A DNA stretch of 64,000 nucleotides from Moniliella sp. 'wahieum' (taxonomy: Eukaryota), in assembly GCA_003971905.1 (NCBI GenBank), contig RSEE01000041.1, forward strand, positions 434,001-498,000, written 5' to 3'. Below the pieces are notes generated by a model that was given only the letters and a program-made list of their open reading frames with translations, was not told the DNA's origin and made no database searches. The position numbers and the translations under genes are program-made. Shown in pieces: positions 2,537 to 64,000 of the stretch (its first letter is position 1; every line of letters starts with the position of its first letter).

Positions 2537-4606
2537 TTTTGAAGGAAGCCCTTTCGGGGACGGTGGGGGGACTGGTGGGGAGTGGGGGGGGAGGCTCGCA
2601 ACGGGACGAGCGGGAAGGTGGCGGTAGAAAAAGTACTTCGGAGGCCAAACGCCGTGGCAAGAAGCAGAGCGGCGCGACCATTCCGACCGAAAAAATCCTC
2701 CTGAATTTTCGCGCGCACCATCCCACTCTTCCCCGGTCTGCGGCTTCATCTGGCACCAGGGCGCTGTTGCCACCTTGTATTTCGTTAGGGTTCGACATGC
2801 TCTGATGCCCTGCACTGCGGCCTGGTGCGGCGCTGCGCAATTGCAATTGGACACTGCCCCCACGGCGCTGGGGCCACCGCGCGGTAGCAGGCACCAGGCG
2901 GCAATGCCTTTGGACGCTCAGCGTGGATTATGTAAGTGCACACCAGTCGCCCCAGGGAACCACCACTGGAAACCAGAGCCAGCCTGGCGGCTCACCTATT
3001 ATTTTTTGCTGCCACGTTTCTTCCTTCTTCACGCTATACTTGCTCCACTTGCAGTTCCTTTGGCGGCGTGACCAGTGCTGGAGACGAAAAGCATCTGCGT
3101 CATCCTCTCGATGCCAGCAGCCTCTGTCGATCAACCTCTCATCTGCGTCACATACACAACCGCCCCTCCTCCCACATCGTGAGTACTGGAGTGTGGGCAC
3201 GAGTAGATCCAGCGCCCACAGTCAACGCTTCAATTCTCTGGTAGGGGGGACGGCCTGCACAGATCGTTGGGGTTTGGAACTTGAAGCTTCAAGCTTGAAG
3301 GTCAAAGTCCAAGGTCAGAGAGAAGTGAGATGTTAGGTCTCTGAGGCGCCTGAGGCCCCTGAAGTTCAGGCTTCCTTGAGCTTGAAGCTTGAAGGCTTGA
3401 TCAATGTTAATGATCCCTCTGCTGGCGCTGATGCATTGATACACTGATGTCTGCTGCTTCAAGCTTCAAGCTCTTGGACGCTTCATCAATTCATCGATCG
3501 TCATGCACCATGAACTTGCGTAGTCCGTGCGTACTGATTGTGGGGCGACGAGAAGTCTTGTCGCGCTATTATGCACAACTCTAACTAACTCTAACTCTCT
3601 GTTGTACGTACATGGTGCCTGACATGCTGACAGAAGAGCGCTGAAACAGCAGCATATATATCCCAGACCTTGCATTTTGGCCAGAGACCCTATATAGGCC
3701 CCAGCCCACCCCAGCCGTTGGGTGGGCTAACTGTCGCGGAGCTTCAACTTGAAGCTTGAAGCTCTTGAAGCTTGAAGCAGGACCTAGCGTGGTCACTATA
3801 TCTATATCTTCGTCTCCTTTTAGGAAATTTAGAGCGCCGCGTCTCCACAGCAAAGTGGGCGCACATGTTTGCCCCATCCTTTCCAACTCTCGAGAAAAAA
3901 AGAGTGCACGGGCCGCCTCTCTATAAAATACGTCTGAAGAGGTTATCATTTTGTTGCTGAAGAGGATTAGGCTGCCAGCAGCAATAGTGCGCGTAAAATA
4001 TGGTGGGATACGGATAGTGCTTGATGCTCTCATCGTATCCAGCTTGTTGCCGGTTACCCCCACACTATACCCCGGTGGCCGTGATGCGTAATGGCCCCAC
4101 AAGTCGTTGCGAAAATTGGCGGTCTATATACGCCACAAAAGAGGCTAATGTATATGGCCGCCGGCGCCTCAAAAGCGTACTCATCACCGGCATCGCCAGC
4201 AACCCCGCACGCTGTGGGGGTGTGTCAATGCTGTTTGGTGCCGATGGCAGCAGGATGCGGGGAGGAGGCTGAGCGTATACGATCCAGGCACACAATAGGT
4301 GTCTTCTTTCTGGCGTTTTGCGTTCTACTGCCGAACATGCATGATGCTTGATGAGCTTGATGCATCTGTATCATCACACGTTGATCTCATCTCATTGTGA
4401 TCTCATTGATTGCGCTGAGGCTCCCTTATGTGGGTCTGCATGATTGCGATGACGGCCCAGATGTGAACTCGGGTGCATAAAAGGACGACGACGAGGTCCT
4501 CTTTCTGCCGTCTCCCTCCTCCACCCACCCACTCTTCCTTTGACGTCTTAACCTCCCTTAACTCCTTAACCTCATTCCCCCATCTCTTTTCTCGCTCTTC
4601 TCCAAA

Positions 4607-5530
4607 ATGACCACCGGTCGTGTTGCCAACAAGATCGCTCTCGTAACGGGCGGGGGCAAGGGCATTGGGGCGGCCACCGCCCACGTCCTAGCGCGCGAAG
4701 GCGCCAAGGTCTTTGTTACCGACATTGATGACGTCGCTGGAGAGAAAGTCACTCAAGAAATCAATAACTCTGGCGGAGAGGCTCACTACGCCTACCTGAA
4801 CACTGCCTCCGACGCTGAGTGGGCATCAGTGATGAATCGGTTCGTTACTTTCCTTTTGGTCATCCAGCACTGCTGTGTGGTGATACATTCTTGTGTTGGT
4901 GGCGGGGTACGAGTGCTGACTGAGTGGATGGGGATGCGCGCAAAGATCGAGACAACGTTCGGACATCTCGACGTTTCTGGTCAATAATGCTGGCATCTTG
5001 CAGCTTGGTACGATTGCCAACACTTCGTTCGACCAATGGCACAAGGTGCAATCAGTCAACTCTGATGGTGTCTTCCTGGGGGTCAAGTATGCTGTTGAGC
5101 TGATGCGGAAGCACAATACCCCCGGTTCAATCATCAACTTGTGCTCCATTCTCGGTCAGTGGGCACGAGGAACTGTGTTGCCTATCCGCCAGCAAAGGAC
5201 TGGTGAACTCTTGACCAAGTCTGTCGCTTTGGACGAAGCACCTTATGGCATTCGGATTAACAACGTAGCCCTGCGTATATCGACACTCCATGCTGAACAT
5301 CATGTCGAAGGAGGAACACGATGCCCTGATCTCATTGCATCCTATGGGTCGGTTGGGACGGCCGGAAGAAGTGGCCAATGCCGTTCTGTTCTTGGCGTCG
5401 GATGAGTCGTCGTACACACAGGAAGCGAACTGATGGTCGATGGAGGATACACAGCCGGTAAGAATTTCATCTTACTCCGTTCCTTTTGTGGGTATCAAGT
5501 GACTGACTCATCTTTGCTCCATCAGCTTGA
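4607..5530 (+). CDS. Classical short-chain dehydrogenase/reductase (SDR)
   Basis: [21 protein letters not shown] (TGxxxGxG), LVNNAG, a YxASK-like motif at about 5183-5197, and [26 protein letters not shown]...VDGGYTA. Introns at about 4840-4945 and 5458-5525. Confidence 0.88.
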
Positions 5531-7316
5531 CCAACTCCTTACCCATGCCCCACATGTGCATTTGCCCTTCTCTTTTCTCTCCCAACCCCAGTTCCCCTTA
5601 ACATATCCCTTTGTTTTCGGGAAGATTTTTGAGTGTCATCCACCTCTTCTCAGTGTGATGTCAGCCTAGTACATCTACGGCTGCTGTCCGACTCACCTAC
5701 CAGGGTATCTTCCTCTGTGTTGGTCTTCTCATTTACGGAATAGATCCATCATGATCTCATTTTCCTCCTGCAAAGTGCAACGACGTTATATTGTCACACT
5801 CTATATGCTGATCACCAAATTCAGGAGGAAGCAAGAAACGGCGTTCGTCCCCAAGGGCAAACGAGATGAGGTGTCACATGTCACCCTCCGAACATAGAGT
5901 CTAACAGCCGTGTTTGGGCCAATAACGCACCGTCATTAGGAAACAGTGTCGAGATCACTCGATCATCGATCACGCCGCATCCCCAAGAAGCCTCATTGGT
6001 TCCATCATGGTTAGCGCTTGCCTTGAGGTTGTTGAGATATATAGTACACCCCTAGAGGTGGCACAGGAGGCCGAGGGTTAATAATAACAGTGAGAAGGGG
6101 GATGAAGAGGGTGGAGGCTGTTGAAGAGCCGGGTGGCTCGTGCTTTAATTGATGGCCAATGTCCCTTCAGTTCCTCCTCATCAGGCCTAGGAGTTCCGCG
6201 GTTTTCTCTCTCTGTTTTTCCTTGTCCCGCAGCTTAGCCCCTGATGGCGACTCGCCGCTTGATGTTCCTTTGTATGCATTGCTGGTTGTCACACCATCAT
6301 CACCACTATAGTGCGATTGCATCACCCTGTGGAGGGCCATCAGGCCTCAGGACTCCCGCGGTCTCATCAGAGGCCTCAGCCTGAGGGGGTGCATAATAGA
6401 AGTATGACAGTCGGATGCGGAGACCCGATGACGCGAGTATGCTCCCACTGCTTCCGAGAGAAGGGATGGTGGTAAGTGTACTGTAAGAGGAGGATGGCAA
6501 GTGTTTTTTGGTTCCAACTAAATTATTCGTGGACACACAGCTGCGCCTTAATTTATTAAAGCCGCGGCCATACTTAACTGACGTGTGTCACGCATTCGAT
6601 AGCCTTCGGAGTAGAGCAGGGAGAGGGCTTTGGAGTCATAGCAGCCGTTGCGTACAACTCGCTAGCAGACGCTCCAACAACCACAGGGCATTGGGACCGT
6701 GTAGACGTGGCGAGGAGTCAGAACACCCGTCCGCCACACAGGGTCCCATTCCCTACCGGTGTGTGTGCTTTCGTATACCTCTGCTCATAAACATACGTGT
6801 CACACAACGCTTACAAGCGATAGTATCCCGTATAGTATACTCTGTGTACGTTTTTTAATCTCCGTAGCATATTCTCAAGCCGGGGGGAAGCAGAATCTTC
6901 TACATGATTCGCCATCGATCACAACAAGCTCTTCCCCGGTGAGGATGTGTGCGCCGTGCCCCCCCCCCCAGCTTCAGGTCACACAGGTACGATTACTACT
7001 TTGTTGTGTATCAATCTATCGCGGACTTAACGATAACCTCTTTTACACCTTTTAGCGTATATAACCCTTCACAGATCTTACACCCAACACGCAACCATCC
7101 GCACTGCTCTCTTCTTAACCAGGGACCACAGTCCTCAGCTAAACGCCCCAGCCTGCATGACACCTTCCAATCCCACAGCATCTGCCCTGGGGGGCCTCGA
7201 AGCGCATCTTCGCAACAGTGTCAGCAAGATACTGTCGCCTTCTGGCCGCATCACTTCGCTGCCTGTAATGGAGGATTCCCGCGCCCTCGCGCGTAAACCA
7301 TGATGAAACCGAGGCA

Positions 7317-63877: not shown

Positions 63878-63915
63878 TCAAGCTCAAGCTTCAAGCTTCA
63901 AGCTTCAAGCTTCAA
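63878..63915. repeat. (TCAAGCT)4+ heptamer array, AAGCTT core
   Basis: tcaagctcaagcttcaagcttcaagcttcaagcttcaa read directly. Confidence 0.92.
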
Positions 63916-64000
63916 GGCGCTCACAAAAGCTTCAAGGTGAAGGTTACTACCTTGATCATTGCATCAGTAGTCTGACCAGAGACCAGGAACGCATGGTGCA

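Follow-up and report, generated by a model that had tools for sequence, protein, structure and literature searches.

How can intergenic DNA come to hold many short tandem arrays in which spacing and framing triplet stay fixed and the palindrome between them changes from place to place? The question is raised by a stretch of 64,000 nucleotides (contig RSEE01000041.1, positions 434,001 to 498,000; hereafter the window), whose spacers contain runs of A-NNNN-T palindromes set one base apart, so that a 4-bp palindrome (pal4) alternates with the triplet T-N-A at a period of 7 bp. A preliminary description of the window, made from its letters alone, attributed these arrays to a structure-based process or to a hairpin- or cruciform-type cis element. 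Our analysis demonstrated that the feature is real, highly non-random and precisely structured. Judged from the sequence, the arrays are best read as scars of site-specific templated insertion, a process that would add a new form to template-switch or hairpin-junction mutagenesis.

The arrays were present where the preliminary description had placed them: AAGCTT arrays could be read directly at 3280-3300, 3456-3472, 3748-3778 and 63884-63916, and AACGTT arrays at 39780-39851. The sole cited place that differed was a supposed AGTACT array at 56328-56370, where the period is 10 or 13 and not 7. Exact period-7 runs of at least 14 bp numbered 34 and reached 4.7 units, repeated head to tail as in a microsatellite. 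The unit contained a 6-bp palindrome in 23 of the 34 runs, and 22 of these 23 palindromes had the form A-NNNN-T; about four palindrome-bearing runs would be expected by chance (7 rotations x 1/64, by our own arithmetic). An identical palindromic hexamer recurred at distance 7 in 18 cases, compared to 0.45 in 20 dinucleotide shuffles, and distances 6 and 8 to 14 gave 0-6 cases. The comparison proposed in the preliminary description was equally clear, with 81 occurrences of T-N-A, pal4 and T-N-A against 7.16 in 50 dinucleotide shuffles, and no enrichment of the control with a non-palindromic 4-mer (96 vs 108). Around pal4, the remaining 15 X-N-Y frames were not enriched either when the window was compared with dinucleotide shuffles. 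The 81 matches grouped into 60 clusters. The earlier figure of at least 11 of the 16 possible cores proved to be an undercount, as 14 are used and only AATT and ATAT are absent. On a rough gene map built from open reading frames (ORFs) and Pfam matches, 78 of the 81 matches lay in the ~33.2 kb outside gene spans and three within the ~30.8 kb of gene spans, one of which (15996) straddles a presumed intron end in the RPB1 tail.

The basic unit of the feature is a 12-mer, [T-N-A-p-q][q'p'][T-N-A-p-q], in which two direct copies of a 5-nt sequence flank the reverse complement of that sequence's final two bases. The T-N-A type of this 12-mer occurred 79 times against 0.4 expected. An open scan for any 5-mer repeated in this arrangement gave 108 matches (9.5 in shuffles), of which 79 started with T-N-A (TCA 35, TGA 32, TTA 7, TAA 5). 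When the scan was made with a 4-mer, the reverse complement of its last three bases and the 4-mer again, 106 matches were obtained; the second base was A in 94 of them, and T preceded 79 of these 94. A nearby reverse-complement copy, as a template switch would leave, is present in the 79 12-mers (vs 0.4), where q'-p'(-T) faces the adjacent (A-)p-q.

The base N was the same in both copies of T-N-A in 67 of 81 pairs (GG 28, CC 27, TT 7, AA 5) and complementary in 8. Likewise, pairs of the same word peaked at distance 7 (TGA-TGA 44 vs 14; TCA-TCA 47 vs 16), whereas pairs of opposite words showed no peak there (TGA-TCA 11 vs 15; TCA-TGA 16 vs 15). The triplet is therefore copied directly, since a fold-back would give the complementary base. 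The structure-based process of the preliminary description is retained in part: each unit does contain an inverted copy, of the kind that template switching or the opening of a hairpin would leave, but simple fold-back or inverted duplication is excluded.

On either side of the 10-bp core, period-7 identity went on for exactly two bases (60-74%) and then fell to chance level. Among single units with equal N (n = 53), our own tally found extension on one side in 35, on both in 10 and on neither in 8. Run lengths peaked at 12 and 13 bp (31/57) and were 5 or 6 modulo 7 in 35 of the 57 runs; larger arrays measured 19, 25 and 33 bp. The phase was fixed in that runs start at the T of T-N-A and end two bases after the last A, which slippage alone would not produce. 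Because the seeds are less than two units long and keep this phase, ordinary slippage does not account for them, and the earlier statement that this is no ordinary microsatellite holds for the seeds. Stand-alone 12-mers (n = 35) had flanks of background-like composition, with 15 on the plus strand and 20 on the minus strand.

The length of the inverted copy was almost invariant. Copies of 0, 1 and 2 bases were found 34 (vs 20.8), 9 (vs 4.5) and 12 times (vs 1.3), respectively; a copy of three bases, q'-p'-T, was found 79 times (vs 0.37), and copies of four or five bases never. Palindromes between two T-N-A triplets were correspondingly concentrated at 4 bp (81 vs 6.4), with no excess at 2 bp (26 vs 27), a weak one at 6 bp (6 vs 1.75) and three cases at 8 bp, all in one array. 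Extra bases between the two copies always sat after the inverted dinucleotide (two extra, 14 vs 0.23; four extra, 9 vs 0.17), and this is the reason for the 9-bp and 18-bp periods reported by Tandem Repeats Finder. The mirror product, with the inverted dinucleotide at the T-N end, made up one of the 12 non-standard 2-base junctions.

Usage of p-q tracked the background of T-S-A-p-q (S, C or G) in non-genic DNA, for example AC 8 vs 5.1, GG 8 vs 4.8 and TC 8 vs 5.6, and all-A/T cores were rare. The core derives from the local flank. A core that is free and follows background frequency argues against a protein site of fixed sequence, and the preliminary description was right to reject a sequence-specific factor site, as the 14 cores are used in proportion to background and none is conserved. 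Loci with the same core did not cluster significantly within the window (p = 0.07 and 0.21), and locally hopping transposon families marked by their core were dismissed on this result. Usage per site was roughly twofold higher for T-C-A and T-G-A than for T-A-A and T-T-A (67 12-mers at 1026 sites vs 12 at 407).

Possible precursors were not depleted: T-S-A with pal4 and no following T was found 82 times vs 93, and the non-palindromic class stood at the counts given above. New DNA therefore appears to have been added, and existing DNA not reshaped; the same insufficient depletion speaks against a "palindromisation" of chance T-N-A pairs. One-sided forms were enriched 1.6-1.9-fold, as decayed copies would give. 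Copies that break one of the nine constraints numbered 3-7 per inner position and 11-15 per outer position, and in total 91 against 79 perfect 12-mers, forming a graded decay series. Most copies are probably young, with the ends as the soft part. Very roughly, and by our own arithmetic, 79 perfect copies at ~1430 T-N-A sites with low decay put scar gain per site near the frequency of base substitution. Two narrower causes were considered and set aside. A C-specific lesion on the inserted strand does not fit our own tally of the isolated seeds (n = 35), in which N on that strand is C in 15, G in 12, T in 5 and A in 3, and a symmetric site of the type II topoisomerase kind (T...A with a 4-base stagger) does not fit the base after the 12-mer, which is A in just 7 of 35.

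We give an even chance to the view that a mutation process left the arrays as scars and that they are no cis element, each unit being a templated 7-bp insertion at T-N-A. The process looks unusually active and apparently undescribed. It is a tentative proposal, which we hold somewhat short of an even chance, that a site-specific process undescribed so far operates in this lineage, with a break at T-N-A, a fixed repair of four bases forward and three backward, and a rate similar to that of base substitution.

On the carrying strand, T-N-A-p-q would become T-[N-A-p-q-q'-p'-T]-N-A-p-q: N-A-p-q would be made twice and, between the copies, q'-p'-T would be copied from the strand of opposite sense. 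The same product can be parsed alternatively as a 5-bp direct duplication (T-N-A-p-q) plus two palindromic bases. The mechanism we prefer, worked out from the form of the product, is one of break, switch and return. A single-strand break inside T-N-A would prime synthesis, which would proceed four bases forward with strand displacement. The polymerase would then turn onto the displaced strand of the same sense and copy it back to its 5' end; because that strand is copied to its end, the copy would stop at T and never hold the complement of N. The new 3' T would re-pair at the position of the old T, the seven bases would loop out, and the nick would be sealed. Such a course would account for the T/A complementarity and for an N that is identical in both copies; it would also make the scar one-sided and give it an odd length (2 x 4 - 1). 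Each event would also create a second T-N-A with the same flank; a site could thus be hit again and grow into an array of n x 7 + 5 bp. From three units upwards, arrays could in addition slip and form hairpins, and slippage does change copy number, as the exact higher-order array of 18 bp x 4 shows. An insertion whose length is not a multiple of 3 would be selected out of coding DNA, and scars would therefore pile up between genes, where their accumulation may help to lengthen the spacers.

Several points weigh against this reading. All counts come from a single 64-kb window, and the direction of change, an insertion into a single T-N-A-p-q, is deduced from the copies themselves. Re-pairing alone would permit any x-N-x', so that a T/A-specific nick or enzyme must be assumed; other self-complementary triplets are nearly absent as frames (A-N-T 0, C-N-G 4 vs 1.3, G-N-C 1). 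The proposed mechanism gives no reason why exactly four bases are re-synthesised. Two ACTAGT arrays 12.3 kb apart (39137-39163 and 51437-51463) are exact reverse complements over 27 nt, including a variant end unit with T-A-A/T-T-A for T-G-A/T-C-A, and have unrelated flanks; independent local events do not predict this shared 27-mer, which may reflect copying from one array to another or a common origin. Scars are few or absent in introns and in several long gene-poor stretches (24.2-30.2 kb, one match), and either the process is regional or these stretches hold unannotated genes.

The closest rival would be that the units are excision footprints of cut-and-paste transposons of the Transib, hAT or MULE type, made of a 5-bp target duplication and two P bases from the opening of a flank hairpin. 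The 12-mer parses exactly in this way, as a 5-bp direct repeat plus two bases complementary to the adjacent end, and a preference of such elements for promoter-side spacers would match the distribution of the scars. According to the available text of PMC5499845, hAT, Transib and MULE elements and RAG all make flank hairpins, which host enzymes open and end-joining seals, often with footprints. We nevertheless consider this origin unlikely, since P bases could be left at either flank and those seen here are one-sided, the mirror product being all but missing, and since the junction keeps an inverted copy of three bases in 79 cases and of four or five in none, unlike end-joining footprints. Nor does the target T-N-A-p-q have two-fold symmetry, the following base showing no enrichment of A. 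No transposase family was recognised among the 87 ORFs scanned in the window, and no parent element was found there; a search of the window for terminal inverted repeats with 11-mer seeds gave no credible element. Duplications of T-S-A-type 5-mers around inverted ends occurred in 4 of 26,995 pairs, one of them array to array, a rate like that of other 5-mers. About 65 loci in ~33 kb would moreover demand a very busy transposon. Lower still, at a small probability, stand ordinary heptanucleotide microsatellites, in which palindromic units would be favoured through the tendency of hairpin-prone repeats to evade flap removal and to slip more often. Microsatellite-like behaviour is indeed seen in some arrays, in that they reach 4.7 units or repeat an 18-bp higher-order unit four times exactly, and folding of the larger ones exceeds that of shuffles. 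Folding was better than in shuffles in two of six stretches, the 72-bp AACGTT array (-22.7 kcal/mol, z -4.7) and the 33-bp AAGCTT array (-7.4 kcal/mol, z -2.8); two mid-sized arrays were unremarkable (z about -1.2), and two small units of 12-14 bp gave 0 and -0.8 kcal/mol (z 0.8 and 0.2), no better than shuffles. Most loci, however, are seeds of 12-13 bp with a fixed phase and without a fold, and slippage requires a prior repeat and imposes no phase; non-palindromic T-N-A heptamers are not enriched at all. A metagenome comparison bears on the same point. An (AAGCTT+G) x 3.4 array was present in at least 120 metagenome contigs with G+C contents of 28-70%, none of which resembles the window beyond the array; in such a scan, any heptamer may give a similar count. 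In the flanks of the metagenome arrays listed (417 kb), 10 12-mers with other cores were found vs 5.2 expected, or 0.024 per kb compared to 0.97 per kb in the window, and the (AAGCTT+G)n runs themselves had a mild excess of lengths at 5-6 modulo 7 and no fixed phase, 40 of 117 starting at the G of AGCT. The flank counts indicate that single palindromic heptamer arrays are widespread and that the many-core pattern is no general property of such genomes. Microsatellite dynamics explain the growth of arrays, not the seeds.

A selected cis element read by shape and spacing, whether bound by a protein, forming a hairpin or cruciform, excluding nucleosomes or acting as a stop-codon trap in leaders, appears comparably improbable. 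The scars do concentrate in spacers upstream of genes (3.2-3.8, 38-43.2, 50.7-52.1 and 62.9-63.9 kb), T-N-A and the spacing are invariant, and three or more units place TGA in all three frames of one strand, as read from the sequence. On the other hand, the core is free and follows background frequencies, isolated seeds lie in both orientations, and the one-sided need for two bases after the second T-N-A to repeat the start of the core has no obvious meaning for a binding site. Decayed copies are plentiful, which fits neutral scars. Because stable folding is lacking in the small units, no hairpin or cruciform element can serve as the general explanation; this suggestion of the preliminary description is unlikely to survive, given that the commonest forms of 12-13 bp are those folding at 0 to -0.8 kcal/mol. 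It is very improbable that the arrays are an artefact of assembly or base calling. They were read in the assembly sequence, but a precise grammar with 14 cores and its near absence from gene spans, which sequencing error would ignore, both speak against it, as does the graded series of decayed copies. The positions of the seeds are collected with those of the longer arrays in Table 1.

Table 1. Period-7 palindromic loci of the window (positions of the window; strand where assigned; the core is the A-NNNN-T palindrome, followed by its spacer base in runs and arrays).
Position	Strand	Core	Form and remarks
3280-3300		AAGCTT	array, 21 bp; spacers G,C,G (alternating spacer, one of few)
3379-3394		AAGCTT+G	run, 16 bp
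3456-3472		AAGCTT+C	run, 17 bp
3748-3778		AAGCTT+G	two runs (3748-3763, 3764-3778) joined by an extra CT
5872-5884	-	ACATGT	isolated seed
5959-5972	-	ATCGAT+C	run, 14 bp
6340-6351	+	AGGCCT	isolated 12-mer seed
8892-8903	+	ACCGGT	isolated 12-mer seed, T-A-A type
9028-9039	-	AACGTT	isolated 12-mer seed
31731-31745	+	AGTACT+T	run, 15 bp; directly past KARI gene
38187-38205	-	AGGCCT+G	array, 19 bp (2x7+5)
38633-38644	-	ATCGAT	isolated 12-mer seed
38953-38968		ATGCAT+C	run, 16 bp
39120-39133	-	AGATCT+G	run, 14 bp
39136-39163		ACTAGT+G	array, 28 bp; final unit T-A-A
39606-39617	-	AGGCCT	isolated 12-mer seed
39780-39851	+	AACGTT+C	array; 18-bp higher-order unit x4 (two heptamers + extra ACGT); sole strongly folding array
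39945-39957	+	ACGCGT	isolated seed, T-T-A type
40095-40107	+	ATCGAT	isolated seed, T-T-A type
40256-40268	+	AGATCT	isolated seed
40523-40547		AACGTT+A	array, 25 bp; T-A-A type
40870-40980	+		TGA-rich tract; 12 TGA in ~110 bp, gaps mostly 7-8; seeds 40879-40890, 40895-40905
41760-41778	+	AACGTT+G	array, 19 bp (2x7+5)
42369-42380	-	ACATGT	isolated 12-mer seed
42616-42628	+	AGTACT	isolated seed
42652-42663	+	AGATCT	isolated 12-mer seed, T-A-A type
42896-42907	-	AACGTT	isolated 12-mer seed
43222-43233	-	AGGCCT	isolated 12-mer seed; start of mitochondrial-carrier gene span
45370-45383		ACATGT+C	full 14-mer
46508-46520	-	AAGCTT	isolated seed
46556-46568	-	AAGCTT	isolated seed
50705-50716	-	AGGCCT	isolated 12-mer seed
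51301-51313	-	AGGCCT	isolated seed, T-A-A/T-T-A type
51437-51463		ACTAGT+C	array, 27 bp
51811-51822	+	AGATCT	isolated 12-mer seed
52066-52077	+	ACATGT	isolated 12-mer seed
52127-52139	-	AACGTT	isolated seed
56083-56095	-	AACGTT	isolated seed
56931-56942	+	ATTAAT	isolated 12-mer seed
58439-58451	+	ATCGAT	isolated seed
60198-60210	-	AGTACT	isolated seed, T-T-A/T-A-A type; 3' edge of GMC oxidoreductase gene span
62980-63075	+	ACGCGT+C	TCA-rich tract; run (62983-62998) + 9-bp variants (heptamer grammar plus 2 bases)
63175-63186	+	AGCGCT	isolated 12-mer seed, T-T-A type
63285-63383	+		TCA-rich tract; seeds 63293-63305 (C,G spacers), 63336-63347, 63371-63383
63728-63740	-	ATATAT	isolated seed
63778-63789	-	AGATCT	isolated 12-mer seed
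63884-63916	+	AAGCTT+C	array, 33 bp (4x7+5); longest pure array

The TGA-rich tract at 40870-40980 is read as a set of decayed, overlapping events. A separate matter is presented by the 11 of the 34 period-7 runs that have neither a palindrome nor the T-N-A grammar, such as GCCGCAC x4; these runs, at 43195-43222, 7550, 25142, 28734, 37119, 51987 and 59499-59531, look like ordinary heptamer repeats. The idea of a dispersed repeat at TATA-like motifs was also discarded, as TATATAGGC-like words occurred 15 times vs 2.9 and TTGCATTTTG 5 times vs 3.5, and no repeat family emerged.

The window is fungal nuclear DNA and encodes RPB1 with its heptad tail, ketol-acid reductoisomerase (KARI), MRE11 and a replication factor C subunit; an EF-G-like GTPase, a mitochondrial carrier, a V-ATPase proteolipid and others were also identified from ORFs and Pfam. 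The closest named homologue of KARI is that of Tilletiaria anomala (76% identity), followed by many other basidiomycetes, and one further contig carries a KARI homologue at 93% identity. Judged by KARI, the organism belongs to the smut lineage (Ustilaginomycotina) or is closely related to it. The 21-bp tandem repeats at 15784-16345 on the minus strand are ordinary, encoding the YSPTSPS-type heptad tail of RPB1 in two frames, and the split between the frames is read as a probable intron at ~16000-16140. The gene for MRE11, a hairpin-opening nuclease, lies at 52345-55000 on the plus strand and adjoins an array-rich spacer; this is a positional coincidence and no evidence for the mechanism. Another array-rich spacer contains a short cysteine-rich ORF of ~36 codons with a CxxC...CxxC pattern (41583-41692, plus strand). 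Long stretches without Pfam matches were found at 24200-30200, 45100-49400 and 55500-58800. Within 25.4-29.4 kb, a series of plus-strand ORFs in differing frames has positive codon scores and is probably an unannotated multi-exon gene. ARAGORN called no tRNA in the window, and an Rfam scan gave only a weak tRNA-like match and none at the arrays. This match, at 8527-8604 on the plus strand (34.9 bits; gathering score 29), is not called by ARAGORN and may be a degenerate or intron-bearing tRNA gene.

If templated insertion at T-N-A is true, one local rule explains why unrelated palindromes resembling restriction sites share 7-bp arrays. The seeds would then show how microsatellites and small palindromes are born without a prior repeat, and their accumulation may explain the length of some spacers in a compact genome. 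The scars would amount to a mutational signature as specific as those of topoisomerases or deaminases, pointing to a testable activity and to an identifiable enzyme behind it, for example a T/A-specific nickase or an unusual property of flap processing or of a polymerase. They would also provide a natural case of a template-switch class, with return upstream of departure, that is unobserved in primate genomes. Counts of the 12-mer grammar, which any assembly permits, could reveal which fungal lineages share the process.

Literature searches, from which subscription journals were mostly outside coverage, returned no description of the 12-mer pattern, and nothing was found in them to confirm the remark that smut fungi have heptamer-rich spacers. 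Among known systems, hairpin-prone microsatellites and bacterial heptamer repeats, such as the G-rich heptamers of Xanthomonas and Nostoc (PMC4692102), likewise have a period of 7 bp, lie between genes, vary in copy number and can fold when the arrays are large. Each such family or locus has one unit sequence, whereas the unit here is taken from the local flank and most loci span less than two units. Replitrons, small inverted triplications (events of ~150 bp) and Fusarium mitochondrial palindromes, to the extent that the accessible accounts describe them, are not applicable to the scars.

Mobile G+C clusters flanked by a duplicated TAG are found in yeast mitochondria. Ultra-short invasive elements are also present in Podospora mitochondria (cited in PMC7218506, as partly available). 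Both resemble the scars as very short palindromic insertions with 3-base direct repeats at their flanks, sometimes in tandem. The organelle elements are defined sequences of 11-40 bp, whereas the palindrome here has 4 bp, varies with the site and lies in nuclear DNA. P-nucleotide junctions, as formed at V(D)J coding ends and after hAT, Transib or MULE excision, share the duplication and the two bases complementary to an end (PMC5499845, available text). The window scars differ from them in being one-sided, of invariant length and at an asymmetric target, with no element or transposase in the window.

Template-switch mutations, known from the quasi-palindromes of Ripley and formalised in the four-point model of Loytynoja and Goldman (2017; PMC5453318), involve local reverse-complement copying. 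As described in the available part of that work, they also share with the scars the inversion of a few bases from beside the departure point, which makes a perfect small palindrome in one step without selection. The return point lies downstream in all the primate types of the available text (PMC5453318), but not in the window scars, where it lies 4-5 bases upstream of departure (at N or T) and adds a direct repeat. An upstream-return class is theoretically possible and, within the same available text, unobserved in human-chimp data (PMC5453318). The window scars further differ from template-switch mutations in being tied to T-N-A, with a fixed size of 4 + 3 bases, at ~65 loci in ~33 kb of spacer.

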